Source: Candidatus Woesearchaeota archaeon (GTDB lineage Archaea > Nanobdellota > Nanobdellia > UBA10117 > GCA-020343615). Taken from it: a DNA stretch of 60,797 bases. The notes under the pieces were generated by a model. The model searched no databases, was not told the DNA's origin, and saw only the letters and a program-made list of their open reading frames with translations. Below, one piece after another: positions 15,613 to 34,920 of the stretch (its first letter is position 1; the number at the start of each line of letters is the position of its first letter). The position numbers and the translations under genes are program-made. The DNA lies in assembly GCA_020343615.1 (NCBI GenBank), contig CP070803.1:469709-530505 (forward strand), in the 5' to 3' direction.

Positions 15613-17040
15613 TTAACCTCTGAAAGTTATGTATCCGTGAGCTTTTCTGTATATCTTGAATAACTTATATATGTCATCTAACACCTTTTCTCTTGCTTGC
15701 TCCTTAAGTAACTTAATTAACCATCTATCCTTCCTGCTTACTTTCTTTTCACCCTCCTTCTTTTTAGGAAGGCGGGGGACTAATGGGCCGAACATTTCTT
15801 TAAGTCCTTTTACTGGAGCACCAAAGATATCAAAAAAACCTCCTAGGATATTAATTGAAGGAGTCTTTTCTTTATCATCTGGCTCATTTAAGTATTCATC
15901 CAAATCGTCAGCTATAGCGTCTAATGACTCCTTTGTCATTTGATCTATGAATCCAAAAATCTCTCTATCCTGCGCCTCCTTTATTTTTTCCAGCTCAGAT
16001 TTTGTAAAAACGTAAGCATAGAAGTCAACTATTATCTGTCCCATATGCCTATAGCTTTTTCCAGATTCACTCTGGTTAACTATGATAGGCTTGCTACTGA
16101 AGATAAAAACCATCTCAATAGCTTGATATACAGTATCTGAAGGCTCCCTGACTCTCTGGCTACCTTTTAAGCCCATGGGATTCTTACCTATCCTAGTAAG
16201 GCCATAAAAATAAGATGAAGCTTTTGATTCCTTTCTTCCCATAATAGATACAGAGACAGTAGAAGTGTCGAAAAAATTAACTACATCTATTGCAGCCTCT
16301 TCGTATAGTTCTTCACTTTGCCTCAATCTATGAGCAGCTAATAGGTACGGTCTTGCCCATTTACTGTATTGTTTTAATGATGCTACTTGTGCTTTTAAGT
16401 AAGATTTTTCTATTTTCCTTCTTTGACGTAGGTCTTTTTCATATCTATCTCTCCATTTTTCATATTCCTCAATTCTAGCACCTACTATCCTCTTTACTCT
16501 TTCATTTAGGTCTAGGCTTTCTACGTCTTTTACACTCTTAGCTTGTAAAAACGCATCTCTTAGAGTTACAAATTCCAACTTGCCGCTGGCTGTAAGCTGG
16601 TTTATACTACCCACACCTCTTTTAGTATCTACCTCATCCATCCATACAGATTTTATAGCAATTTCAGCAGCATCTTTGTTCTCACCACCTAATTTACGTA
16701 AATCATCAAAAATTTCCAGTCTTCTGTCAAATTCCTTTAGGTCATAAACTAATTGTAGAATGCTCTTTATTACGGTGTTCACATCTGCCATTATTTCTTT
16801 AGCCCTTTGCTCCATCCTCGTTTTTTTCATACCTAGGTCTGAAAAGAAGGAGCTAGCTACAGCTACAGCTACAGCTTCGTCAGTCTTCTCAAGCTGGTAT
16901 CCTTGAACATTTTTTAGATAATCTGTTAACCAGTAGTAAGTTGGCTCTAAACCTGCTGCTGGAAGATCCAAAACTAATTTCCTATGATCAACACGACGTT
17001 TTTCTTTGAATTTCTTTACATTGAACTCTTTTTCGTCCAT
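15613..17040 (-). CDS. hypothetical protein coupled to the TIM-barrel gene
   Basis: 475-aa ORF whose stop lies 1 nt before the downstream ATG. No family recognised. Confidence 0.6.
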   Translation of the reverse strand: MDEKEFNVKKFKEKRRVDHRKLVLDLPAAGLEPTYYWLTDYLKNVQGYQLEKTDEAVAVAVASSFFSDLGMKKTRMEQRAKEIMADVNTVIKSILQLVYDLKEFDRRLEIFDDLRKLGGENKDAAEIAIKSVWMDEVDTKRGVGSINQLTASGKLEFVTLRDAFLQAKSVKDVESLDLNERVKRIVGARIEEYEKWRDRYEKDLRQRRKIEKSYLKAQVASLKQYSKWARPYLLAAHRLRQSEELYEEAAIDVVNFFDTSTVSVSIMGRKESKASSYFYGLTRIGKNPMGLKGSQRVREPSDTVYQAIEMVFIFSSKPIIVNQSESGKSYRHMGQIIVDFYAYVFTKSELEKIKEAQDREIFGFIDQMTKESLDAIADDLDEYLNEPDDKEKTPSINILGGFFDIFGAPVKGLKEMFGPLVPRLPKKKEGEKKVSRKDRWLIKLLKEQAREKVLDDIYKLFKIYRKAHGYITFRG

Positions 17041-17148
17041 TTATCACTATTTAATACGCTTCTATTATTAATAAGAATTATGTTTCTACTTTTTAGATAT
17101 CATTATTTTAATAAAACAAAGGAGATTTAGAATTAAAAGAAGTTAATT

Positions 17149-17541
17149 TTATTGTTCAATAACTTTAGTTATTCTCTTTTCTAATAGATTTATATTACTC
17201 TTATTTATTTCTTCATCTGGAACTTTATAATGCTGTATATCAAAATACAAACCACCATTTGAAAAGAAAATAGATATATCATAAGTATAGTCGTCTCCTC
17301 CTCCACTAACTTTACATTTTTTTGCTGGGTAAATATCAGCACGCCAGTTCCCCGGAGAATCAGAAAAAGGTTCCGATATAGTAAAGATACTAGAAATATT
17401 TTTTTCTATTTTTTTGACTATATCATCAAGTTTTTGAAAGTCTTTAGGAGTGGGGGACGTAGCTTTTACGAATGATTCTCGCGTGTTTTTCCCATAACCT
17501 ACGAGATAGTGTATTTCTGTAGAAAGTTTATCAGCAGCCAT
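17149..17541 (-). CDS. hypothetical protein
   Basis: 130-aa ORF with normal composition. No family recognised. Confidence 0.5.
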   Translation of the reverse strand: MAADKLSTEIHYLVGYGKNTRESFVKATSPTPKDFQKLDDIVKKIEKNISSIFTISEPFSDSPGNWRADIYPAKKCKVSGGGDDYTYDISIFFSNGGLYFDIQHYKVPDEEINKSNINLLEKRITKVIEQ

Positions 17542-18531: not shown

Positions 18532-18885
18532 ATGGTTAATTTAAAATTTTGGAAAAAGGAAAAAGAAAGAGGAGGTTATGAAGATTTTGAAGGTTTTGGA
18601 GGAGTTAAAGGAGGATTTGGACCTGCAGGAGAAACCGGAGCTCCTATAGGTGGCGAACCATTTCCACAAGGTACTGCTGGCATGGGTCTACCTGGAGCCC
18701 CTGTTACACCATCAATATCGGGCGGAAGTGAAATGGACATAGTGAAGAAAGACATTGAAGTGTTAAACTCTAAGATGGACTCTTTAAAAGCATCTTTGGA
18801 GGCAATAAATCAAAAATTGATTAACATTGAAAGTAAGCTGAAAGGTACAGACGAAGGATCTACTGAACCTTCTTGGCACTACTAA
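18532..18885 (+). CDS. hypothetical protein with G/P-rich N-terminus and coiled-coil C-terminus
   Basis: 117 aa. GGFGPAGETGAPIGGEPFPQGTAGMGLPGAP is followed by a heptad region DIEVLNSKMDSLKASLEAINQKLINIESKL. The start lies 1 nt after the DJ-1 stop. Confidence 0.5.
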   Translation: MVNLKFWKKEKERGGYEDFEGFGGVKGGFGPAGETGAPIGGEPFPQGTAGMGLPGAPVTPSISGGSEMDIVKKDIEVLNSKMDSLKASLEAINQKLINIESKLKGTDEGSTEPSWHY

Positions 18886-21145: not shown

Positions 21146-22903
21146 TTATTCGAAATACCAGTAATGGTTTTTACTCTTTTGTTCCCTATCTAATCTGGAA
21201 TTAAGCTTGTTAACCCTAGGCCTACCGGAATCAGGGTCTTTTCGCAAGGTGACGTCCAATTCTTTAAGAAAAGAGTTCATACCCTCTTTTACTCCGGCTA
21301 TTTCCTTAGCAACGCCTTTTTTAGCTGGTTCTCCTGTAAAAACCAAGAATCTACTAGAGAAATAACTTAGAAATAGAAGATCATGATCTATTATTATGAA
21401 GCTAGCATTCTTTTTTTTACTGATTTTCCTCAATGTTTTAGCTACATGCAGTCTTTGCTCTACGTCTAAATAATTAGAGGGCTCGTCTAATAGGTATAAA
21501 TCTGCATCTCTTCCCAAACACGCAGCTATGGCTACTCTTTGTAATTCTCCACCAGATAATTCAGTTAGGTCTTTTTCAAGTAATGGAATGACTTCTAATG
21601 GTTCTAATATCTCATTTTTTCCCTCTATTGTTAGTAATTTCTTGTTTATTTTTTTGAGAACATCCAGAACCAAACCCTTGTTTGCTTCTATATATTGCGG
21701 TTTATACGAAATTTTTAGGGTAAAATTCAATTTTCCTTCATCAGGCTTTAGTTCTCCTGCTAGCATTTTCATAAAAGTGGTTTTCCCAATGCCGTTTGCA
21801 CCGATTATTCCTACAATTTCGCCTAATTTAATCTCAGAAGGCTCAACCTCAAGGTTAAATTTGCCTAATTTTTTGGCCATTTTAGGCCATAGTATCAACG
21901 TTTCCTGGCTTAATTCGGATTTTAAAGCGCCAGGATCAAACTTTATAGGCTTATCCCTAAACCTTATGTTCTCATCAGACAAATATCCGTCTAAATAGGT
22001 ATTTAATCCCCTTCTTTCTGACAAAGGATGAGATACTATACCATATGCTCCTGATTTTCCGAATAATAGGTGAGTAGAATCAGTTAAGTAGTCTAAAATA
22101 AGCAAGTCGTGCTCAATTACAATTACTGGTTTTCCTTTTTCAGCAAGTTCTCTGATAACCTTAGCCACCCTAATCCTCTCTTTTATGTCTAAATATGAAG
22201 CAGGCTCGTCAAAGAAGTATAAGTCAGCTTCTTTAAGAATAGCAGCAGCAACTACCACTTTTTGTAGTTCCCCACCAGATAACTTTGATAATTTACTGTT
22301 TAAAATGTCATCCAAACCCAATTTTTTAGATATGTTTTTAATATTCTTAGAGAATTTATTCAATAATTGCTTAGCAGTGCCCTTAAATTGCTTTGAAATT
22401 AGGTTAATTTCTTGGATTTTATAAGAAACTTTGATTTTATCTGAATTCAAGTTCTTAAAGTAAGCTTGCAATTCAGTTCCTTTGAAATGATCTAAGATAT
22501 CCTTTTCTTCTACTGATTCTCTGCCTAGGTTAGGTTTTAATAAATTTGATAGTAATTTTAACGCAGTTGTCTTACCTACACCGTTTCTTCCCAAAAGACC
22601 AACAACTTCTTTTTTCTTAGGGATAGGCAATCTAAATAGTTCAAAAGCATTAGGACCATATCTAAAGATAGGATCTTCCTTTAATGCTTCTGGAAGATTT
22701 ATTATTGAAATAGCTCCAAATGGGCATTTTTTAATGCAAATCGCACATCCAACGCAGAGACCTTCGTCTATTATTGGCTTGCCATCAGGGCCAATAACTA
22801 CTGCTTCTTCTCCTACACGTACTCTTGGACATGCTTTTTTACACTCCTGAGCACATTTCTTAGGTTGGCATTTATCTCTGTCTAAAATAGCTATTCTTGT
22901 CAT
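21146..22903 (-). CDS. abce1: ABCE1 / RNase L inhibitor-type ribosome recycling ATPase
   Basis: N-terminal 4Fe-4S region (CQPKKCAQECKKACP...CVGCAICIKKCP). Two ABC modules with Walker A GRNGVGKTT / GANGIGKTT and signature LSGGELQ twice. Confidence 0.95.
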   Translation of the reverse strand: MTRIAILDRDKCQPKKCAQECKKACPRVRVGEEAVVIGPDGKPIIDEGLCVGCAICIKKCPFGAISIINLPEALKEDPIFRYGPNAFELFRLPIPKKKEVVGLLGRNGVGKTTALKLLSNLLKPNLGRESVEEKDILDHFKGTELQAYFKNLNSDKIKVSYKIQEINLISKQFKGTAKQLLNKFSKNIKNISKKLGLDDILNSKLSKLSGGELQKVVVAAAILKEADLYFFDEPASYLDIKERIRVAKVIRELAEKGKPVIVIEHDLLILDYLTDSTHLLFGKSGAYGIVSHPLSERRGLNTYLDGYLSDENIRFRDKPIKFDPGALKSELSQETLILWPKMAKKLGKFNLEVEPSEIKLGEIVGIIGANGIGKTTFMKMLAGELKPDEGKLNFTLKISYKPQYIEANKGLVLDVLKKINKKLLTIEGKNEILEPLEVIPLLEKDLTELSGGELQRVAIAACLGRDADLYLLDEPSNYLDVEQRLHVAKTLRKISKKKNASFIIIDHDLLFLSYFSSRFLVFTGEPAKKGVAKEIAGVKEGMNSFLKELDVTLRKDPDSGRPRVNKLNSRLDREQKSKNHYWYFE

Positions 22904-23535
22904 TTTAGCTCTTCTATATTGATTTCATTGAAATTTGAGATAATAATATCCGCAGGCAAGTCTTTATTTACTTTTCTATTTACATATCCAATACAAAACA
23001 TATTTGCCCTTTTAGCAGCAACCATCCCATTTACTCCGTCCTCAATAACAATACATTCTTCCGGCTTTAAACCTAGTCTTTTAGCAGCTAGTAAGAACAC
23101 ATCAGGACTTGGTTTTCCATGTTCTACCTCCGTTGAACTTGTAATAACATCAAATTTATCTTTCAGATTCAATTTAGATAGAACAAATTCTATAAAATTG
23201 ACTGGGGAAGCGGATGCTATTGCTAATTTAAAGCCACTAGTTCTTAATTTATCTATAAACTCTATTACCCCGGGCATGGCATCTATACCATCCTTTACAA
23301 GAAGAAACAATTTTTCCCATTTTTCTTCTAAGGTCTTATCTATATCGATAAAAACCCCATATTCTTCAGATAGTTTTTTTAACCATTCTCTGTCTGAAAC
23401 TCCTGCATAAGTTTCAGTTAGTTCGTCGGTAGTCATCTCTATTCCATATTTCTTAAGTAATTCTGACTCCACCTGTACTTGTAATTTTTGAGTATCTGAA
23501 ACAACTCCATCCATATCAAAGATAACGGCCTTCAT
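22900..23535 (-). CDS. HAD-superfamily hydrolase (beta-phosphoglucomutase-like subfamily IA)
   Basis: Motif I VIFDMDGVVSDT, motif II IASAS, motif III/IV KPSPD...IEDGVNG. 4-nt overlap with abce1. Confidence 0.85.
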   Translation of the reverse strand: MKAVIFDMDGVVSDTQKLQVQVESELLKKYGIEMTTDELTETYAGVSDREWLKKLSEEYGVFIDIDKTLEEKWEKLFLLVKDGIDAMPGVIEFIDKLRTSGFKLAIASASPVNFIEFVLSKLNLKDKFDVITSSTEVEHGKPSPDVFLLAAKRLGLKPEECIVIEDGVNGMVAAKRANMFCIGYVNRKVNKDLPADIIISNFNEINIEELK

Positions 23536-23536
23536 T

Positions 23537-24070
23537 TTAATCTACCAATCCCATATATTCTTCATACTTATACTCGTCTAGAACAATTAAAATCTCAAAA
23601 TCCTTTATTACTTCTGCAAATTTATGTCTAATTGCCTTTACAATCTTATTTAGTTCTATAGTATCTTTAGCAGAAATATACACTATATAATCCCATTTTC
23701 CTGAAGAAGTAGCTAAATAAGTTATTCTTTTATCTCTCATAAGGTTATTCATGAATTCATCTTCCTGTTTTTTGTTTATATTATACAAAGAAAATAAAAC
23801 ATAACTTATTATTGGAAATCCCATTTTAGGGGGATTTACTACAGGCATAAAACCAGAAATAACATCCAGGTCTATCATTCTTTTGATCCTGTACCTTATA
23901 ACGTCTCTAGATAACTTTGTTATTTTTGATAATTTAGCTAGAGAGTATCGGGCATTTTTATTTAGAGCATGTAAAATCAATCTATCTTTTCTATCTAAGT
24001 CTGCTTTTTTTCCATAGGAGAAATTTGTTCTTCTACGTAAAAGTTCTTTTTCGAATGCTTCAGGTTCCAT
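23537..24070 (-). CDS. Lrp/AsnC family transcriptional regulator
   Basis: HTH segment DRKDRLILHALNKNARYSLAKLSKITKLSRDVIRYRIKRM followed by a RAM/ACT-like C-terminal domain. Divergent from the 24176 operon. Confidence 0.8.
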   Translation of the reverse strand: MEPEAFEKELLRRRTNFSYGKKADLDRKDRLILHALNKNARYSLAKLSKITKLSRDVIRYRIKRMIDLDVISGFMPVVNPPKMGFPIISYVLFSLYNINKKQEDEFMNNLMRDKRITYLATSSGKWDYIVYISAKDTIELNKIVKAIRHKFAEVIKDFEILIVLDEYKYEEYMGLVD

Positions 24071-24175
24071 ATTACTTATTATATGTAATATTATTTAAAA
24101 ATTTTACTATTTTAAGTAATTTTTAATAAAAAATTATTTATTATACTTATTTTAACGATTTTGTAGCAGTAAAAA

Positions 24176-24385
24176 ATGTTAGAAAATGAGCATAAGTTAT
24201 GTTACCGTCATAAGAATGTTAGGTGTAATGAGAAGTGTGCCGCCTATTCAACAATAGGGATGAGCATAGACAAAGGTCCCCTCAGTGAAGGTACAACACA
24301 TTGCATCGCTCTATTTAACGAGAATAGTATTGGAGATGCTCTAAAGGAAATAAACAAAACTCTAGAACATAAATTAGGTAAATAA
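24176..24385 (+). CDS. small Cys/His-containing protein, first gene of paralog-array operon
   Basis: 69 aa (CYRHKNVRCNEKCAAY...THC). The stop lies 1 nt before the next ATG. Confidence 0.45.
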   Translation: MLENEHKLCYRHKNVRCNEKCAAYSTIGMSIDKGPLSEGTTHCIALFNENSIGDALKEINKTLEHKLGK

Positions 24386-24386
24386 A

Positions 24387-24749
24387 ATGGTAAAAATAGA
24401 ATATATCTCTTTAAAAAATCTTCAAGTAGGAAGAGTAAAAATAGAAGTAAAAACTAAAGGTGCTCGAACATCATGGCAACCTTTAACGCATGAAGAAAAT
24501 GCATTTACTGTAAAAGGATTATCCGATCGTGTTTATCAAGTAACTCCCGCACCAGCACCATATTCTCCAAAGTTAAGAGCAGTAGACGTAGCTTCCGATG
24601 TAGTAAAGAAAGAGTATGGCGATGACACTATCTATATTTCTCAACAGATTAGATTTAATCCAGATAGAATCGAGGAATCATTAAACAAGCCAGTAGATGT
24701 TTTGACAGGTACATTAACTTTGGAAGGGCTAATAATAAAGAAAAAGTAA
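24387..24749 (+). CDS. family-A small protein, copy 1
   Basis: 120 aa: MVKIEYISLKNLQVGRVKIEV...KKEYGDDTIYISQQIRF...GTLTLEGLIIKKK. Paralogous to 24751 and 25100. Confidence 0.6.
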   Translation: MVKIEYISLKNLQVGRVKIEVKTKGARTSWQPLTHEENAFTVKGLSDRVYQVTPAPAPYSPKLRAVDVASDVVKKEYGDDTIYISQQIRFNPDRIEESLNKPVDVLTGTLTLEGLIIKKK

Positions 24750-24750
24750 A

Positions 24751-25131
24751 ATGGTAGAAACAAATTATAACCCTTTAAAAAACAAAGAAGTTGGAACAAT
24801 AGAGATAAAAGTAGAAACCACGCCTTTTGGCCATCCAAAAGACCGATGCGCGTTTATTATAAAAAACAAAGACCTAAAAAAAGACCATATTTATCATATT
24901 CGTATTTCTAGAATCGCTGATCCACAGCCTCTTTCCCCTCAAACAGTGGAATATATAGGTAAAAACATTATAAGGCAAGAATATGGAGAAGAAGCCATAT
25001 ACATACACCAAAGCTATCGATATGTCCCTCTAAAAAAAGGTATCAGCAATTTAGAGGGGAATCTAACTCTACAAGGTCTTCTAATTAAAGAAAAAGATGA
25101 TGGTAGAAATAAAAGAGACTTCGATAAATGA
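24751..25131 (+). CDS. family-A small protein, copy 2
   Basis: 126 aa: MVETNYNPLKNKEVGTIEIKV...RQEYGEEAIYIHQSYRY...GNLTLQGLLIKEK. The tail overlaps the next gene. Confidence 0.6.
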   Translation: MVETNYNPLKNKEVGTIEIKVETTPFGHPKDRCAFIIKNKDLKKDHIYHIRISRIADPQPLSPQTVEYIGKNIIRQEYGEEAIYIHQSYRYVPLKKGISNLEGNLTLQGLLIKEKDDGRNKRDFDK

Positions 25132-25492
25132 TAATTTAACCGAAGTAAAGATAGAAGCAGAAGTTAGACGAGCGCATAAAGGTATTAAGAGAATACTATT
25201 AGAGAATATATTTAGAGAATGTATATTTAAAGTAGAGGGCATAGACTTTACATATTTTTCCGTTAAACCTATTAAATTTAAAAGCGGTGGTCTCCTTACA
25301 AAACATAAACTTCTAGATCCTGGAATGAGGGCTGAAGAAATAGGTAGGTATATTCTAGCAAATCACTATGATGGACCCTTTAAGTTCATTTCTAAAAACG
25401 AATACAGGTTTAAACCAGATGAAGGTAAAGAACATCCTACTCTAGATGGAAAATTAACCATATATGGATTTATAGTCAAGGGGGTAGAATAG
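25100..25492 (+). CDS. family-A small protein, copy 3 (divergent)
   Basis: 130 aa: MVEIKETSINDNLTEVKIEAEV...ANHYDGPFKFISKNEYRF...GKLTIYGFIVKG. Start taken at the second ATG to match the MV(E/K) starts of its paralogs. Confidence 0.55.
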   Translation: MVEIKETSINDNLTEVKIEAEVRRAHKGIKRILLENIFRECIFKVEGIDFTYFSVKPIKFKSGGLLTKHKLLDPGMRAEEIGRYILANHYDGPFKFISKNEYRFKPDEGKEHPTLDGKLTIYGFIVKGVE

Positions 25493-25496
25493 AAAA

Positions 25497-25799
25497 ATGA
25501 AATGGAAATTTGAAGATTCTAAATTAGAAAAAGTAGTAGATAGAACTGTAATTAGATTATACGGTATATTTACAGATCCAACAGATACAACATTGCTTGC
25601 TAGACGAGGCGATAGTAGAGGAATAGAACCGACGAAGCGCATAATTGAGATTCTTCCATTGGACGGAAAAATCACTAACCTTGAAAAATACAAAGACTAT
25701 ATTGTTCCTAGCTTCGAAGAGTTAGAAGAAACTGATGAATATATCACATTTCAGGCTCTTAAGGAAAAGTTTCGGATTTATTATCAGCCGCAGAAATAA
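25497..25799 (+). CDS. family-B small protein, copy 1 (divergent)
   Basis: 100 aa ending EKFRIYYQPQK. The internal segment RIIEILPLDGKITNLE aligns with IMIYPSQGEINIDI and IVVSPSEGKVAYSI in the other two copies. Confidence 0.55.
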   Translation: MKWKFEDSKLEKVVDRTVIRLYGIFTDPTDTTLLARRGDSRGIEPTKRIIEILPLDGKITNLEKYKDYIVPSFEELEETDEYITFQALKEKFRIYYQPQK

Positions 25800-25800
25800 A

Positions 25801-26094
25801 ATGAAATGTAAAATTGAGAACAATGATCTGGATCTGGAAGAGAAAGTGGGAAAAATATTAGATAAATTACTTCAAGTAAATCCTAGTTCATCAGGAACAG
25901 AATTAATTGCTGAGTGGGGTAAAAAATACGGACGTAAAGGCCGTAAAAAGTCAATCATGATTTACCCTTCCCAGGGAGAAATAAATATTGATATTATTGC
26001 AAGATGTTCTAATGGTAATTCAAGTCATAAGAGACTTGAAGTTTTCTATAAAGATGATCTATACGATATTTTTTATCTTCCTCAAAAACAATAG
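25801..26094 (+). CDS. family-B small protein, copy 2
   Basis: 97 aa. ATG 25801 lies 1 nt after the previous stop. ELIAEWGKKYGRKGRKKSIMIYPSQGEINIDI...HKRLEVFYKDDLYDIFYLPQKQ. Confidence 0.6.
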   Translation: MKCKIENNDLDLEEKVGKILDKLLQVNPSSSGTELIAEWGKKYGRKGRKKSIMIYPSQGEINIDIIARCSNGNSSHKRLEVFYKDDLYDIFYLPQKQ

Positions 26095-26102
26095 AATAGA
26101 AA

Positions 26103-26426
26103 ATGGTAAATTTCAAGATTAAAGGTTACGGAAAAGAAAAATTAGAAGGAATAATATTCAGAGATTTAAGTAAATTAATCGAAATATCCAAAGATTCAGA
26201 TAATCCTAGTACAGATTTAGTTGTTAAATTCGGTAGAACCTGGGGAGGAAAAAATAAACAAACAATAGTAGTTTCTCCCTCTGAAGGAAAAGTCGCATAT
26301 AGTATTAATACTCCTAGAGGCTACAACGCGATTGGGTTTCAAGTAGATAATATAACTCACAAAAGTTTTCGGATATTCTACAAAGGTAAGAAATTCGATT
26401 TTTACTATAATCCACGTAAACGATAA
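26103..26426 (+). CDS. family-B small protein, copy 3
   Basis: 107 aa: DLVVKFGRTWGGKNKQTIVVSPSEGKVAYSI...HKSFRIFYKGKKFDFYYNPRKR. Confidence 0.6.
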   Translation: MVNFKIKGYGKEKLEGIIFRDLSKLIEISKDSDNPSTDLVVKFGRTWGGKNKQTIVVSPSEGKVAYSINTPRGYNAIGFQVDNITHKSFRIFYKGKKFDFYYNPRKR

Positions 26427-26465
26427 AATTAAAAATACTTCTTTATTTCATCTTTTTTATGTTAA

Positions 26466-27815
26466 TCATTCTTCAATCTTCCAAAGTATAGCAGGATTTG
26501 CTCTAGTTTTCGCTTTACCATATCTGGAGATTAATCCTTCTTTTTCTAAGTTATGTAGAAAATGCATGACAGTAGATTTATAGATATTTAATTCATTAGC
26601 AAGCCAAACAGATGTTCGCGGTTTTTCTTTAAGAAATTCTAAAATTTTCTTTTTAGTTACTCCCTTTTGCCTACTAACACCTTTTCTTTTCACTTCAAAT
26701 TTATGCATCCTTCTTAATTTGTAAATTATTGCCGAATCTTTAGCTACTCCGATTTTAGAAATAATTCCTAGAGAATATAATTTTTTAATATGAGATCTTA
26801 CTCCTTGCCTTGATATCTTTAATATTCTCGCTAATTCATTTATAGTCCTTGGTTTCTCCTTAATTAATTTTATAATTATATTTTTAGTTTGTCCCTGACT
26901 TTTACTTCTCCACAGCTTATTTTTCCGAATTATAAAATCTTCAATCTGTTTCTCTTTATAACCTAAGCCTACACATGGGAATTTCCTCTTTAGATTTGAG
27001 TAATCTTTCCATAACTCTCTGACACCTTCACCTAAAATATATAGTTTTCGAGGTTTTAGGGAAGATTTATAATTACATCTATCGCATATAGTCTTTAAAT
27101 CTCGTAATAGTTCTTCGTTATGAAGTCCAATAACAATTTGCCCAGAATCAACGTGTCCTTCATCTATTATAAACGCTAAAATAACGGCAAATAGCTCATC
27201 TTTTTTTAAATTAAACCATTCTTTTGGAATCCTTGCTCTGTCTGAAAGAAATTCTTCAGGTTTAATATCTACTTTATTTGCCATTGCCATAGATAAAGAT
27301 GAGGGTAGATATACTCTACTTTTCGCTACATTCACGTCTATTTTTCCAAATTGTGAGTTAACCTTATTAATAAATAAAGTAAGTAATTCTCGATTATATT
27401 GTACGTAACCGAAATAAGGAGTTTTATTTTTTATTCGTATACAATTTCCATCAGCCATTATATGCGCAAGAGTCATATAGAATAAAGGAGATATTTCAAT
27501 AGGAAGTTTAGGCCTTTTTACATTTATTCTCCCCCTAGAAGATCGATAGCTAATTATATTTCTTTCCATTCTAGATAATGGGATATCTAGGCATACACAA
27601 CATTTTGTTAAAATGTCAACAGGAATAAAATAAGGGTTAGAGAATTTAAGCATATTTTTAAAGTAAGTAAATGAAACTTCTAAATCTAAGTTAGAATAAA
27701 ACTTTCCCTGAGTTTTGTATTTGTTCTTTATCTTTTGTTTTATTTCTTTTAAAAAAGTTTTATAAACTCTTACAGATACGTTAGGAAAATCGAAAATATG
27801 AATGCACTTAACCAT
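26466..27815 (-). CDS. free-standing double-motif LAGLIDADG endonuclease-like protein fused to two C-terminal winged-HTH domains
   Basis: LAGLIDADG-like motifs TLAHIMADGN and ILAFIIDEGHVD lie ~100 aa apart. The C-terminus has two ArsR/MarR-like wHTH units (KPRTINELARILKISRQGVRSHIKKLYSLGIISK; KPRTSVWLANELNIYKSTVMHFLHNLEKEGLISR). It is not embedded in an intron or intein host gene. Confidence 0.7.
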   Translation of the reverse strand: MVKCIHIFDFPNVSVRVYKTFLKEIKQKIKNKYKTQGKFYSNLDLEVSFTYFKNMLKFSNPYFIPVDILTKCCVCLDIPLSRMERNIISYRSSRGRINVKRPKLPIEISPLFYMTLAHIMADGNCIRIKNKTPYFGYVQYNRELLTLFINKVNSQFGKIDVNVAKSRVYLPSSLSMAMANKVDIKPEEFLSDRARIPKEWFNLKKDELFAVILAFIIDEGHVDSGQIVIGLHNEELLRDLKTICDRCNYKSSLKPRKLYILGEGVRELWKDYSNLKRKFPCVGLGYKEKQIEDFIIRKNKLWRSKSQGQTKNIIIKLIKEKPRTINELARILKISRQGVRSHIKKLYSLGIISKIGVAKDSAIIYKLRRMHKFEVKRKGVSRQKGVTKKKILEFLKEKPRTSVWLANELNIYKSTVMHFLHNLEKEGLISRYGKAKTRANPAILWKIEE

Positions 27816-27867
27816 AGAAAAACTTAAGTAACCGTAGTTTATAAAATTTACTAGAGGTGTTTACCTA

Positions 27868-29067
27868 ATGGTCCTTATAGGAATAGTAGGCGGTCCTAAT
27901 AAAGGCAAGAGCACTTTTTTTAAGGCAGCTACCTTAGCTGATGCTGAGATTGCTAATTACCCATTCACGACTATAAAACCAAACAGTGGCGTGAGCTTTG
28001 TACGAGTAAAATGCCCTGAGAAGGAATTTAACTTAAAATGTAGCCCAAATCACGGTTTCTGTATAAGAGGAAACAGGTTTCTTCCTGTAAAATTATTAGA
28101 TGTAGCAGGTCTCGTACCTGATGCACATCTAGGTAAAGGACTGGGTAATGAATTCCTTAGTGACTTGAGTCAGGCAGATGCTTTGATTCACATAGTTGAC
28201 GTTTCAGGATCAACTACTGAAAAAGGTGAACCTTGTGAGGCAGGAACTTATGACCCTTGTAATGATATTAGATTCTTAGAAGAAGAAATAGACCTCTGGT
28301 TTGATAATATTCTAGTTAAAAGCTGTAGCAAGTTTGCCAAAAGAACAACCTTAGAATCAAAAGACGAAGATAAGGAAATAGCTGAACAATTCTCTGGTTT
28401 GAAAATAGACCTAGGAATGGTCAAGGATGCTAGAAAGAAAACAGAGCTTACCAAGAAAATAAAGGATTGGAGTGAAGATGAAGTTAAGAATTTTGCAAAG
28501 CAATTAAGAATCGTTTCCAAACCAATAATAATTGCTGCCAATAAAGTAGATATTCCTTGTGCTGAAGCTAATCTGAAGATTATCAAAGAGAAATTCCCAG
28601 ATTTAAAGATAATTCCTTGTTCTTCAGAAGCTGAATTAGCACTTAAGGAAGCTGCTAAGCATGAATTAGTCGAGTATATTCCTGGAGAAAAGGAGTTCAA
28701 AGTACTAGCAGAAGATAAGCTAAATGAAAAGCAAAAGAAGGGCTTAGAATTCGTTAAGAAATTCTTAGATAAATGGGGCTCTACAGGAGTTCAGGATTGT
28801 CTGAATTTAGCTGTTTTCGAAGAACTAGATTATATTGTAGCATATCCAGTAGAAGATGGTAATAAATTCTCAGATAATAAAGGAAACGTATTTCCTGATG
28901 GCTTTTTATTGCGTAAAGGAAGCAATGCTCTGGATTTAGCCTATGCTGTTCATAGTGCTATTGGAGACAAGTTCATCAAGGCTATAGATGCTAGAACAAA
29001 GCAGGTAATTGGAAAAGAGCATACTCTAAAAAATAACGATATAATTGAAATTGTAAGTGGAAAGTGA
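27868..29067 (+). CDS. Obg/YchF-type P-loop GTPase/ATPase with C-terminal TGS domain
   Basis: G1 GGPNKGKST, G2 YPFTTI, G3 DVAGLV, NKVD, and a C-terminal TGS-like segment GSNALDLAYAVHSAIGDKFIKAIDARTKQVIGKEHTLKNNDIIEIV. Confidence 0.85.
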   Translation: MVLIGIVGGPNKGKSTFFKAATLADAEIANYPFTTIKPNSGVSFVRVKCPEKEFNLKCSPNHGFCIRGNRFLPVKLLDVAGLVPDAHLGKGLGNEFLSDLSQADALIHIVDVSGSTTEKGEPCEAGTYDPCNDIRFLEEEIDLWFDNILVKSCSKFAKRTTLESKDEDKEIAEQFSGLKIDLGMVKDARKKTELTKKIKDWSEDEVKNFAKQLRIVSKPIIIAANKVDIPCAEANLKIIKEKFPDLKIIPCSSEAELALKEAAKHELVEYIPGEKEFKVLAEDKLNEKQKKGLEFVKKFLDKWGSTGVQDCLNLAVFEELDYIVAYPVEDGNKFSDNKGNVFPDGFLLRKGSNALDLAYAVHSAIGDKFIKAIDARTKQVIGKEHTLKNNDIIEIVSGK

Positions 29068-29103: not shown

Positions 29104-29292
29104 ATGGCAAATAAGACATTAGAAAAAAGAATAGGTAGAGATCCAAGGACTAAAGCAATACTTCCTATCGCAATAGTAGATAAAGTAAATTATAATCCTT
29201 TAAATAATAAAATTCATATTAATGACAAAGGATATAATAAAATCAAAAAAACTCATAAATATCATACTCGAGAGAGTAAACCAATAGGTTAA
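29104..29292 (+). CDS. hypothetical small protein
   Basis: 62-aa basic ORF. It contains VNYNPLNNKIHI, resembling the N-terminus of family-A copy 2 (TNYNPLKNKEVG). Significance unknown. Confidence 0.35.
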   Translation: MANKTLEKRIGRDPRTKAILPIAIVDKVNYNPLNNKIHINDKGYNKIKKTHKYHTRESKPIG

Positions 29293-29307: not shown

Positions 29308-30690
29308 TTAAACTGTAGTTTTATTATACACTTTAACTAATTCTGGTAAATAAGTCCCAGAGTATAATGAATCTTCAAATGCTATTTTAAATGGTTCTTC
29401 TAAATGTAATTTCTTACCCGCTCTATTATATTCTGGGTACCTATTAACATTCCCGAATACATCTTTTTTCTTTATGACTGGAACATAGGCTTCAGGTATT
29501 ACATTCCATACGAACTCATCCAACCAGTCTTCAGGTAATTTATCCTTAAACTTATCTTTAAGATGAATAGCTTGAACGCAGATATCGAACAGCTTTTTGG
29601 AATAATCTTCTTCACTAAATCCACTTCTAGGTTTACTTACTTTATCTGATAAACCACTAATTCTACCGTATTTTTGAAGAAGTCTACTAATATATGTTGG
29701 ATGAGGAAAATTATCTAAAACTGGTTCTTCCATCATGACCGAATAGAGAAGTAATTCATTAGGAACGCATCCTTTTTTTACAAGTTTTTCCTTGGCTAAA
29801 TCTGCAAAGGTTTCGTAGCTGATATATTCTACTTCTTTTTCACCATCAAGATGAGTCCAGATGGTAGTAGTACCCATTTTTCCAGAATTTTCAAATTCAT
29901 TCACAAAATTAACAAGAGATCTAGGACTTCTGTCACTATTATTATAAAAAAAAGTAACAATAAAGTCATCTACTCTAACATTAGAGTCTTCAAAAAGCGA
30001 TCCAAATTGATTTACTTTAAATTTTGGAAATAATATTTTAGATAAATAATTCTTAGAATCACGTAGGTATCTTACTTCTTCCTTACTTTTAGTACTATGT
30101 GATTTACTAGGTCTTACTTCTCCGAATTTTAAGAGAACGTCATCAAGTGTTTTAATTCCTGCTTTGTCCAAATAATGTGAAAGTTGTGCTTCCGAAACAA
30201 GCATAATATTTTTTCCTCTATTTGCTTCATAAATTGTACCTTGTAAAAGATTTTCAAATTTTTTAGGTTCAAGAGTACCTTCTACTATTGAATCTCCCAT
30301 ATAATGTATATCATCAATAATTATAGGATTACAATAATTTAACAGATCACTTACTGAATTTTTTTGATATAATTCTTTAATTATGTCGAATCTTTCTCCC
30401 CATGTTTCTTTTGTGGCTATTTTTTCAGGGTCTAATGCTTCGATTTTATTTGATTTTTTATAAATAAACATAACTGGAAAAGGATTAGATTTATCTTTCG
30501 CAATGTTAGATAAAGCTTTTCTAATATGGAAAGTTTTACCTATACCTTTCGGAGCAAGTAAGTATTTAGGATATCTTTTATTATAACTTGTTAAATTTAC
30601 TACGAGATTATCAACAAAATCTTGAGAGATAGGTCTTAATGTCTCAAGTTCTTCCAGAGTGTAATCTTCAGCTCGGGGTTTCATAGCCAT
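29308..30690 (-). CDS. P-loop NTPase (archaeal ATPase/AAA-like) with large uncharacterised C-terminal region
   Basis: Walker A LLAPKGIGKTF and Walker B-like NPIIIDDIHYMGD in the N-terminal ~170 aa. The remaining ~290 aa are unassigned. Confidence 0.6.
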   Translation of the reverse strand: MAMKPRAEDYTLEELETLRPISQDFVDNLVVNLTSYNKRYPKYLLAPKGIGKTFHIRKALSNIAKDKSNPFPVMFIYKKSNKIEALDPEKIATKETWGERFDIIKELYQKNSVSDLLNYCNPIIIDDIHYMGDSIVEGTLEPKKFENLLQGTIYEANRGKNIMLVSEAQLSHYLDKAGIKTLDDVLLKFGEVRPSKSHSTKSKEEVRYLRDSKNYLSKILFPKFKVNQFGSLFEDSNVRVDDFIVTFFYNNSDRSPRSLVNFVNEFENSGKMGTTTIWTHLDGEKEVEYISYETFADLAKEKLVKKGCVPNELLLYSVMMEEPVLDNFPHPTYISRLLQKYGRISGLSDKVSKPRSGFSEEDYSKKLFDICVQAIHLKDKFKDKLPEDWLDEFVWNVIPEAYVPVIKKKDVFGNVNRYPEYNRAGKKLHLEEPFKIAFEDSLYSGTYLPELVKVYNKTTV

Positions 30691-31481: not shown

Positions 31482-31754
31482 GTGAGTATTTCTAATCCGT
31501 GGTATTCAGTATTTATCACAAAAAGAGTGATTAGGGAAGAAAGCAAGGGTCTTATTTTCAAGGTTCCTGAAGTAGTTGCAGTATACGATCCTCCAATAAA
31601 AATTGAAGTAAATCATCATCCTCCTGATATGTACAGTGATATAATTATATCTAGAACCTACACTAATGCTAAGGATTACAACCCTATTTCAGACTTTTCT
31701 ATTTACAGACCATTAGCGGATGCAGTTATATCTGCCAATAATAAAGAAAATTAA
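31482..31754 (+). CDS. hypothetical protein (start uncertain)
   Basis: 90-aa ORF from GTG 31482. The frame is open upstream to 31398 without an ATG, so the gene may be N-terminally degraded or use an unusual start. Confidence 0.3.
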   Translation: MSISNPWYSVFITKRVIREESKGLIFKVPEVVAVYDPPIKIEVNHHPPDMYSDIIISRTYTNAKDYNPISDFSIYRPLADAVISANNKEN

Positions 31755-33585: not shown

Positions 33586-33888
33586 TTATTTATAGAGGTT
33601 CTTTTTTGCTTCATTAACAAGTGTAGAAGAATAATCATCTAATTTTTTATCGAATACGTTGTCACCTGTTCTCTTATTCTTACCAACATAGGTTACACTC
33701 CCTCCTGTATTTTTTGAAAGCGCGTCTCCTAGTTTTTTTGTATCGTCTTTACTTAGAGGCAGTTTTACCCGTATTATATTTGACTCCAAACTTGCATTCT
33801 CAGGAAGCTTTTCGTCTCCTGTAGATTTTGCTCTAGCTTCTCTTTTTTTAACCAAATCCATTAAATTTGCTGTAATCTTGCTTACCAT
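33586..33888 (-). CDS. hypothetical protein
   Basis: 100-aa ORF convergent with infB. No family recognised. Confidence 0.45.
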   Translation of the reverse strand: MVSKITANLMDLVKKREARAKSTGDEKLPENASLESNIIRVKLPLSKDDTKKLGDALSKNTGGSVTYVGKNKRTGDNVFDKKLDDYSSTLVNEAKKNLYK

Positions 33889-33995
33889 AAAACAGTTTTA
33901 ATTTGAAAGTGATTTATAATACTTTTGTATATACTACTTATAAGAAATAGCAAATAGTAAGTTTTATATATTTCTTTAAATGACGTTGGAATACT

Positions 33996-34439
33996 ATGGA
34001 AGTATTAAAGAAAAGAATAGAGAAACGTCGTGAAGAATTCGAAAAAGAAGTAGAGGATCTAGTTAATAAAGTAAAAGGCCTTATAGATGAAAAAACTAAT
34101 GAATTATTGGAAGAGATAAAAGAGTACGAATCTTTGATGGATATGAATAATTATGATCCAGATATAGAGAAACTGGGGTTAGATATAGTAGTATGGGGAG
34201 ATGATAGTCCTAATGATATATATATTAAAGTGAATAATCCTTCGCTAGCATTACTAAAAATGTCACAAATAGCACTAGAAGATAGAAGTGAACAAAGTTA
34301 TTCTAAGGAAAATCTTATGACTATAAAAAAGTTATTTGATGGTCTACCTAAAGATATGAAAGATAACGTAAGAGAATGGTACCAAGGTACTGTCTGTGAG
34401 TACATCCAAACTGGGAAAGTACATGATAAGAAAAAGTGA
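33996..34439 (+). CDS. hypothetical coiled-coil protein
   Basis: 147 aa, E/K-rich. AGTTTTATATATT lies ~30 nt upstream. Confidence 0.5.
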   Translation: MEVLKKRIEKRREEFEKEVEDLVNKVKGLIDEKTNELLEEIKEYESLMDMNNYDPDIEKLGLDIVVWGDDSPNDIYIKVNNPSLALLKMSQIALEDRSEQSYSKENLMTIKKLFDGLPKDMKDNVREWYQGTVCEYIQTGKVHDKKK

Positions 34440-34497
34440 TAATGTATTTCTTTAATATGGAAAGAAATATAAATTATAACTGAGACAAAAAGATAAA

Positions 34498-34920
34498 ATG
34501 GGTATTTTTGATGGAGAAAAAGAGCCAAAAAAAGCCTTCTTAGATTTAGATATGAAGGAAGAAGAGTTAATCAAAGAGATAGAAAAAGAGGCTGATAGAG
34601 AAATACAAGAATTACTAGAAACTATAAGATTAATCAAGGACGTAAAGAACAGGGGTCTCTACATTCTAGAAAAAATGAATGATCTTGATAGCGTTCTAAA
34701 AGGAGAAGCAAAGACATCCAAACTGGAATTCAATAGAAGAGAATACATAGCAGGTACTCTAGAGATATTGGACAGACAATTAGAAAAGCTCAAGACAGAA
34801 GAATTGGTAGCTCTTCAAGAGGAAAAAGAAGAAGATAAGCTTGAAAAATTCATTTTAAGCTTAACAAAAAAAGCTGATAAGATATTAGGTGATGCTAAAA
34901 AAGAACTTGAAAGTAAATAA
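34498..34920 (+). CDS. hypothetical coiled-coil protein
   Basis: 140 aa, E/K/L-rich heptads. Confidence 0.5.
   Translation: MGIFDGEKEPKKAFLDLDMKEEELIKEIEKEADREIQELLETIRLIKDVKNRGLYILEKMNDLDSVLKGEAKTSKLEFNRREYIAGTLEILDRQLEKLKTEELVALQEEKEEDKLEKFILSLTKKADKILGDAKKELESK

Follow-up and report, generated by a model that had tools for sequence, protein, structure and literature searches.

Introduction

What does an operon of small orphan proteins, most of them members of two triplicated families, do among the housekeeping genes of an archaeal chromosome, and do the two families act together? The question is raised by a stretch of 60,797 nucleotides (nt) from a Candidatus Woesearchaeota archaeon, referred to here as the window, in which positions 24176-26426 of the forward strand are filled by seven close-packed open reading frames (ORFs) encoding small soluble proteins. 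An earlier note, made from the DNA sequence, had proposed that the two families, here called A and B, build a joint hetero-oligomer. The follow-up analysis described here finds a real operon, located on an archaeal chromosome, with the A triplet as its conserved core: in a single relative the three A genes keep their order beside the same regulator. Judged by the gene content of that relative, A and B are not obligate partners.

The operon and its two protein families

The seven genes of the operon are as follows.

24176-24385, forward strand: 69-amino-acid ORF with four Cys and four His; a singleton without a counterpart in the relative
24387-24749, forward strand: A1, family-A paralog of 120 amino acids; the best-conserved member
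24751-25131, forward strand: A2, family-A paralog of 126 amino acids; the fast-evolving middle position
25100-25492, forward strand: A3, family-A paralog of 130 amino acids; starts MVEIKE and overlaps A2 by 32 nt
25497-25799, forward strand: B1, family-B paralog of 100 amino acids; isoelectric point (pI) 5.6
25801-26094, forward strand: B2, family-B paralog of 97 amino acids; pI 8.9; starts MKCKIE and carries a basic Gly-rich loop, WGKKYGRKGRKK
26103-26426, forward strand: B3, family-B paralog of 107 amino acids; pI 9.95

The spacing between these genes, in order along the operon, is 1, 1, -32 (the overlap), 4, 1 and 8 nt. The coordinates and spacing thus bear out the seven-gene operon with gaps of 1-8 nt or overlaps that had been described. 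At three junctions (69-amino-acid ORF/A1, A1/A2 and B1/B2) the stop and start codons are arranged as TAA-A-ATG, the classic layout for termination-reinitiation coupling. The statement that most of the genes begin AAAATGGTA holds for A1, A2 and B3 only and fails for the remaining genes.

The two families were recovered by pairwise and by profile comparisons. BLASTP connected A1 with A2 (33% identity, E 3e-18) and with A3 (E 1e-7), and B3 with B2 (E 6e-13) and with B1 (E 3e-5). Leave-one-out hidden Markov models (HMMs), in which a profile built from two members was searched against the six-frame translation of the whole window, regained each left-out paralog with E values from 1.6e-5 to 3.8e-15 (A3 1.6e-5, B1 2.2e-5, B2 7e-11), the best noise match having an E value of at least 0.09. 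No relation between A and B was detected by hhalign (probability 0.3%). These results agree with the earlier description of two unrelated families, each in three tandem copies. A six-frame HMM search of the window revealed no further copy of either family. The paralogs are deeply diverged, at 22-41% identity, and since the B paralogs are only 27-33% identical among themselves, the B triplet is old.

The motifs first proposed for the families are broadly right. The central block EYG..IYI and the N-terminal motif suit A1 and A2; A3 departs from the central block and fits these motifs only loosely. The C-terminal motif of family B has been revised to [FY][RD][IF][YF]Y.P[QR]K, and B2 and B3 share the basic Gly-rich loop. 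Over six A sequences, three from the window and three from the relative, the invariant columns are M1, I19, F40 and Y77, and elsewhere Gly, Leu, Thr and Pro positions are near-invariant. The same alignment holds no conserved catalytic-type residue set, which suggests that the A proteins are structural or binding proteins rather than enzymes. The highest 19-residue Kyte-Doolittle mean among the seven proteins is 0.92, so that none has a transmembrane segment, as had been stated, or any other hydrophobic segment. A1-A3, B2 and B3 are basic (pI 8.9-9.95) and B1 is acidic.

The best codon score falls on the annotated frame for all seven genes. The 69-amino-acid ORF has the weakest coding score (0.07, against 0.14-0.43 in housekeeping genes) and a deviant GC content at third codon positions (0.32, against about 0.2 in its neighbours). 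By these measures it would be a doubtful or recently acquired accessory gene.

A relative that keeps the A triplet without B

How far do the two families extend beyond this genome? Family A was searched for in 5.8 billion protein clusters with a word-indexed method and, exhaustively with HMMER, in 1.84 billion representatives standing for about 15 billion proteins. Elsewhere it occurs only in three proteins of one other organism (P0004, P0009 and P0008). Family B has no homolog outside the window in the word-indexed search of 5.8 billion, the exhaustive HMMER search having covered family A only, and the 69-amino-acid ORF matched only itself among 5.8 billion proteins. Neither family had a match in the GTDB species genomes or in IMG/VR. 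The JGI metagenomes contained no family B, and family A only on the already known contig of the relative; the GenBank phage records contained no match for B2 or B3. The operon is confined to one narrow lineage, with family A seen in two organisms and family B in one.

The relative consists of two short contigs from one ENA sample (ERZ27279932), the first of which is also a JGI contig (sample 3300027917). Assembled from both, the gene order reads ABCE1 <- AsnC <-> A1-A2-A3 -> Obg-like GTPase, where the 5' part of A2 lies on one contig (L001) and the 3' end of A2, A3 and the GTPase gene lie on the other (L003). Four blocks of the window are missing: a HAD-family hydrolase gene, the 69-amino-acid ORF, the whole B triplet and a gene with winged helix-turn-helix (wHTH) domains and a LAGLIDADG-like stretch. 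The AsnC gene of the relative is 37 nt from ABCE1 with no HAD gene between. The conserved promoter region leads straight into the start of A1, ATGGTAAAAATAG, with no 69-amino-acid ORF. The Obg-like GTPase gene begins 32 nt after A3 with no B gene between. This 32-nt spacer and the spacer after B3 in the window are alike at 28 of 32 nt, and the first 8 nt of the GTPase gene are alike as well. The comparison counts four indels within about 6 kb for a pair of organisms whose core proteins share about 84-89% identity.

The relative keeps A1-A2-A3 without B, an outcome that the earlier note had itself named as counting against its proposal, and by that standard an obligate A+B assembly is refuted. 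The absence of the B triplet and the 69-amino-acid ORF also means that both are dispensable for whatever A does, and that the 3+3 symmetry is specific to this genome rather than a conserved design rule. Co-occurrence of A and B in other genomes or metagenomes was looked for and not seen. The B block was either lost by the relative or imported whole by this genome.

In the relative, homology to A2 ends after about 87 codons. The next 73 nt (L001 1552-1624, which also form the end of contig L002) are unrelated and richer in GC. The 3' end of its A2 resumes at the beginning of the separate contig L003. Such a break points either to a chimera made in assembly or, within this fast-evolving middle gene, to an insertion or to variation among strains.

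The degree of conservation differs from gene to gene. A1 and P0004 are 84% identical in amino acids and 88% in nucleotides, with a ratio of nonsynonymous to synonymous substitution rates (dN/dS) of 0.21. For A3 and P0008 these values are 63%, 76% and 0.35, and for AsnC and its ortholog 84%, 81% and 0.075. The N-terminus of ABCE1 is 89% identical in amino acids and 88% in nucleotides, and the nucleotide identity of its iron-sulphur (Fe-S) domain (88%) equals that of A1. The dN/dS values of A1 and A3 indicate that the A genes are real and constrained. On these substitution rates, A1 and A3 are under purifying selection, A1 being conserved like core genes. A2 and its positional counterpart P0009 share only 40% of their amino acids, no more than A2 shares with A1 (41-46%), and 59% of their nucleotides.

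The regulator and the control region

The A triplet has a constant neighbour. The two features concerned are the following.

23537-24070, reverse strand: Lrp/AsnC-type transcription regulator of 177 amino acids, divergent from the operon (assigned by Pfam)
24071-24175, unstranded: divergent control region of 105 nt with two palindromes and a TATA-like element

The regulator matched HTH_AsnC-type (1e-10), HTH_24 (6e-9) and AsnC_trans_reg (1.9e-4; 21.7 bits against a cutoff of 25) in Pfam. In the relative it occupies the same divergent position next to A1 (L001). The divergent Lrp/AsnC regulator that had been reported for this operon is thus confirmed by domain match and by arrangement.

The control region contains the palindromes TTACT-N8-GTAAT (24072-24089) and TTACT-N7-GTAAT (24104-24120), which lie 32 nt, or three helical turns, apart. 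A near-perfect palindrome with 11-nt arms is found at 24069-24091. For the pattern TTACT-N6-8-GTAAT, 1.03 occurrences would be expected in 60.8 kb; there are four, half of them inside the 105-nt control region. This region is 90-93% identical to that of the relative, a higher conservation than in the coding DNA that flanks it, although AsnC has a synonymous substitution rate (dS) of 1.2, near saturation, and a nucleotide identity of 81%. The palindrome arms are kept in the relative, apart from a single change in the first site, where TTACG replaces TTACT, and several spacer bases differ. A TATA-like element, TTTATTATA, can be read from the sequence at 24137-24145, about 35 nt upstream of the first ATG. 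The palindromes are candidate operators of the adjacent regulator, and the TATA-like element may be the promoter of a transcript with a short leader. A scan for bacterial-type promoters and terminators, which is not suited to archaeal DNA in any case, gave counts at chance level.

Ss-LrpB and its neighbouring genes are an example of an archaeal Lrp/AsnC (feast/famine) regulator and its divergent target operon. The locus resembles such systems in its head-to-head HTH_AsnC/AsnC_trans_reg gene and in its short AT-rich region with regularly spaced palindromes. It differs from them in that the targets belong to two orphan families and not to metabolism or transport, and the operators here are putative.

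The dS of A1 (24387-24749 compared with L001 924-1289) is 0.34, much below the values for AsnC (1.2) and the GTPase (1.8). Together with the control region, A1 makes up a block of unusually high nucleotide conservation, which could reflect strong constraint on codons or RNA, or a recent exchange between lineages.

The search for known families and folds

Can families A and B be placed among known proteins? The seven proteins, together with a short ORF at 29104, were compared with Pfam, NCBIfam, PHROGs and PADLOC, and both family alignments were also scanned member by member at E <= 10. No match was above threshold and none was common to the paralogs. The best score in a curated family was obtained by B2 alone (DUF3994, E 0.0027; 18 bits, with the cutoff at 25). 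B1 alone matched the PADLOC model PDLC01141, labelled 'Unknown' (E 0.0064 over 36 residues), with none of its partner genes. Profile searches of PDB sequences with both families returned noise only (E of at least 0.18).

Structure models were built with AlphaFold2 (AF2) from the few available sequences and are of low confidence. The A1 model is beta-rich with one helix and three strands of 15-17 residues (predicted local distance difference test score, pLDDT, 62; predicted TM-score, pTM, 0.56). In the B3 model (pLDDT 59.5), about seven strands come after a helix at the N-terminus. At E <= 1e-3, Foldseek found no match in PDB for the A1 and B3 models or in BFVD for the A1 model. The top matches of A1, all insignificant, are repeatedly phage tail-terminator, tail-completion and neck proteins, among them lambda gpU, the E217 and Pa193 gateway proteins and the diffocin collar, with BFVD probabilities up to 0.96. 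The best PDB match has E 0.021 and a query TM-score (TMq) of 0.22, and the best BFVD match has E 0.018, with a maximum TMq of 0.38, in a test that is made weak by the pLDDT of 62. Both fall short of the TM-score above 0.5 and E below 1e-3 that were taken to mark significant similarity. B3 weakly, and again insignificantly, matched phage baseplate proteins.

The tail-terminator lead was rejected at the profile level, where hhalign gave family A probabilities of 0.08% for lambda gpU and 0.32% for gpV; any kinship would be one of fold only. The A1 model is like gpU-type tail terminators in its length class of about 120-130 amino acids and its mixed beta-sheet-plus-helix composition. It is unlike them in that no tail or other virus genes are near the A triplet and in the hhalign probability below 1%.

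The earlier note recognised neither family, and that assessment stands after comparison with Pfam, NCBIfam, PHROGs, PADLOC and PDB sequences, all without a match, and after structure searches without a significant one. Families A and B cannot be placed in known kinds by sequence or by low-confidence structures, which implies no new mechanism.

The surrounding genes

The genes around the operon are archaeal housekeeping genes. The window is low in GC (about 33%), and this composition, together with the 919-kb size of the source contig, suggests a DPANN-like archaeon with a small genome. The nearest neighbours are ABCE1 (an Fe-S ABC protein of 585 amino acids), the HAD hydrolase, the Lrp/AsnC regulator, an Obg/YGR210-like GTPase and aIF5B; Alba, the RNase P protein Pop5, proteasome alpha and SBDS lie farther away. 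The window contains no tRNA or Rfam element, and no capsid, terminase or integrase gene is near the operon. The context is thus not an island, and nothing nearby resembles a provirus or a defence island. Four further features adjoin or lie close to the operon.

22900-23535, reverse strand: HAD-family hydrolase between ABCE1 and Lrp/AsnC; absent in the relative
26427-26466, forward strand: post-operon spacer with a T-run, followed by the orphaned original start of the Obg-like GTPase gene, ATGTTAAT (26459-26466); matches L003 of the relative
26466-27815, reverse strand: wHTH/LAGLIDADG-like gene, convergent with the operon; two clear wHTH domains
29104-29292, forward strand: ORF of 62 amino acids just after the GTPase gene; NYNPLNNK motif

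The convergent gene had been described as LAGLIDADG plus wHTH. Its two wHTH domains are clear; the LAGLIDADG part is weak and below threshold (LAGLIDADG_3, E 0.015; 16 bits, with the cutoff at 22.5; residues 208-256), with the motif-like stretches LAHIMADGN and LAFIIDEGH readable in the protein. The gene is borne by an insertion of about 1.41 kb (26459-27876), by which the Obg-like GTPase gene was split at its start. Its original start and the upstream spacer were left behind at 26427-26466. The GTPase gene of the window has a new start, ATGGTCCTT, at 27868, and from ATAGGAATAGT (27877) onward it is ancestral sequence again. In the relative the start reads ATGTTAATAGGAATAGT, without interruption. 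From this layout, the insertion looks like a free-standing homing-endonuclease-type element that supplied a replacement 5' end and promoter.

The ORF at 29104 had been noted for a family-A-like motif. NYNPLNNK is present, as a 7-of-8-residue match found nowhere else in the six-frame translation, and 17 of 18 nt match the 5' end of A2. A tblastn comparison with A2, made in a very small search space, gave 31% identity across 52 columns and E 2e-4. The family-A HMM gave no significant score (E 6.2), so that the ORF may at best be the remnant of an A-type gene, or a chance resemblance.

Orphan genes are common in this genome. About 40% of the scanned neighbour genes (8 of 20) have no Pfam match. 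The ORFs without a Pfam match at 15613-17541, 18532-18885, 31482-31754 and 33586-34920 encode products of 475, 130, 117, 90, 100, 147 and 140 amino acids. None of these is paralogous to A or B, and other tandem arrays of small-protein genes are absent from the window. Convergent with the GTPase gene, a gene on the reverse strand (29308-30690) encodes a protein of 460 amino acids without a Pfam match; its Walker A (APKGIGKT) and Walker B-like (IIIDD) motifs mark it as a predicted, unclassified P-loop NTPase.

What might the operon do?

The explanation that we favour, tentatively and as a real possibility rather than an expectation, is a translationally coupled operon under Lrp/AsnC control. Its core would be an A triplet of co-acting beta-rich proteins, probably a three-paralog complex, to which B and the 69-amino-acid ORF are accessory. 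The regulator would bind the palindromes and control both its own gene and the operon. The A proteins would be produced in fixed proportions through stop/start coupling, at TAA-A-ATG junctions or by overlap. They would be soluble, beta-rich and non-enzymatic, in keeping with an alignment in which only hydrophobic, aromatic, Gly and Pro positions are invariant. A1-A3 would function jointly as a complex, with A1 as its constrained scaffold and A2, which evolves fast, as its variable subunit. The B proteins would form a second, unrelated set with a helix-plus-beta-sandwich-like structure, a genome-specific add-on that shares the transcript. A structural assembly, a binding function and a part in genetic conflict are candidate roles.

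A parallel for three retained paralogs is provided by the crenarchaeal PCNA1/2/3, which form a heterotrimer. The analogy is one of logic only: three diverged A paralogs are likewise kept in order across species. Unlike PCNA1/2/3, to which they have no sequence or fold relation, the A paralogs are adjacent and translationally coupled, and their assembly is putative.

Several points weigh against this explanation. That A1-A3 probably co-assemble is argued solely from their retention, order and translational coupling. There is a single relative, represented by contigs of 0.7-1.6 kb that leave the central part of its A2 unassembled. A2 resembles its positional counterpart there no more than it resembles A1, a pattern that would suit diversifying or conflict evolution just as well as a variable subunit. 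The palindromes sit in very AT-rich DNA, the exhaustive HMMER search covered family A and not family B, and with pLDDT values of 60-62 even the modelled folds are uncertain.

Could the operon instead be a module of genetic conflict, such as a defence, toxin/immunity or symbiont-host system, in which the tandem paralogs are a diversified set for recognition or immunity and A2 and B are turning over quickly in an arms race? It would fit such a module that A2 retains 40% identity between two organisms in which AsnC and A1 retain 84%, that the presence of the B triplet and the 69-amino-acid ORF varies between the two, and that the assembly of the relative breaks within A2. Both families are extreme orphans, the codon scores are somewhat under those of housekeeping genes, and the mobile-looking wHTH/LAGLIDADG-like gene adjoins the operon. 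Tandem arrays of orphan paralogs are carried by archaeal viruses and variable genome regions. The A/B array is like these in its small, fast-evolving, lineage-restricted tandem paralogs, whose presence varies between close relatives; it is unlike them in being placed inside conserved housekeeping synteny and in the core-gene-like conservation of A1. The latter also speaks against a conflict module, as do the housekeeping flanks, the dN/dS below 1 wherever it is measurable, the absence of domains of toxins, nucleases, ATPases and proteases, and the lack of a PADLOC match beyond the 'Unknown' model on B1. We consider this alternative unlikely, if worth keeping in view. A toxin-antitoxin module in particular was rejected: no toxin-antitoxin family was matched in Pfam, NCBIfam or PADLOC, and seven genes in two triplicated families are not the architecture of such a module.

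A bolder form of these ideas is that A and B found new folds in a module not seen before, in a DPANN-like archaeon with a small genome. An Lrp-switched, co-assembling core with a hypervariable middle would be combined with plug-in accessory triplets, such as B, for virus/host conflict or recognition. We think this quite unlikely.

The A and B genes may also derive from an archaeal virus or mobile element that is so far unsampled and have been domesticated by the host, for instance as small ring-forming structural proteins of the tail-tube or terminator kind. The phage neck, tail-terminator and tail-completion proteins at the top of the A1 structural matches, and the weak baseplate matches of B3, point in this direction. 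The paralogs are 22-41% identical, yet A1 now evolves slowly and has no homologs beyond one genus-level clade, which fits import from an unsampled pool. The structural matches are insignificant, however (E of at least 0.018, TM-score at most 0.38, models with pLDDT of about 60). The hhalign probabilities for lambda gpU and gpV are below 1%, there is no PHROG match, and IMG/VR and, for B2 and B3, the GenBank phage records gave none either. The locus itself has no capsid, terminase or integrase gene nearby, and its housekeeping synteny is kept in the relative. An origin of this kind would be decidedly unlikely on these model-based matches.

The A3B3-type cage or filament, built from A and B subunits as a single hetero-oligomer, was suggested in the earlier note by the equal copy number. 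In this genome one tightly coupled transcription unit does hold three copies of each. The relative runs A1-A2-A3 directly into the GTPase gene, and B is found in no other protein or contig; the assembly of the relative is fragmentary, so that a B copy elsewhere in its genome is possible. The proposal is not supported, and we regard it as very improbable.

We give equally little credence to small basic factors associated with nucleic acids or ribosomes (of a chromatin or RNA chaperone-like kind), for which the pI of 8.9-9.95 in five of the proteins, the basic Gly-rich loop of B2 and B3 and the neighbours ABCE1, Obg-like GTPase, aIF5B and Alba could be cited: a high pI is expected in a genome of 33% GC, B1 is acidic, no nucleic-acid-binding family was matched, and core translation factors would not be limited to two organisms.

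Significance

Given the very narrow distribution of the operon and the orphans that are common nearby, its general impact will probably stay modest as long as no further relatives and no phenotype come to light. If the A triplet is indeed a regulated heteromer or a conflict module, two new protein families, possibly with new folds, would be added to those known. The locus would then also be a tractable example of how archaea with small genomes invent, triplicate and shed lineage-specific genes.

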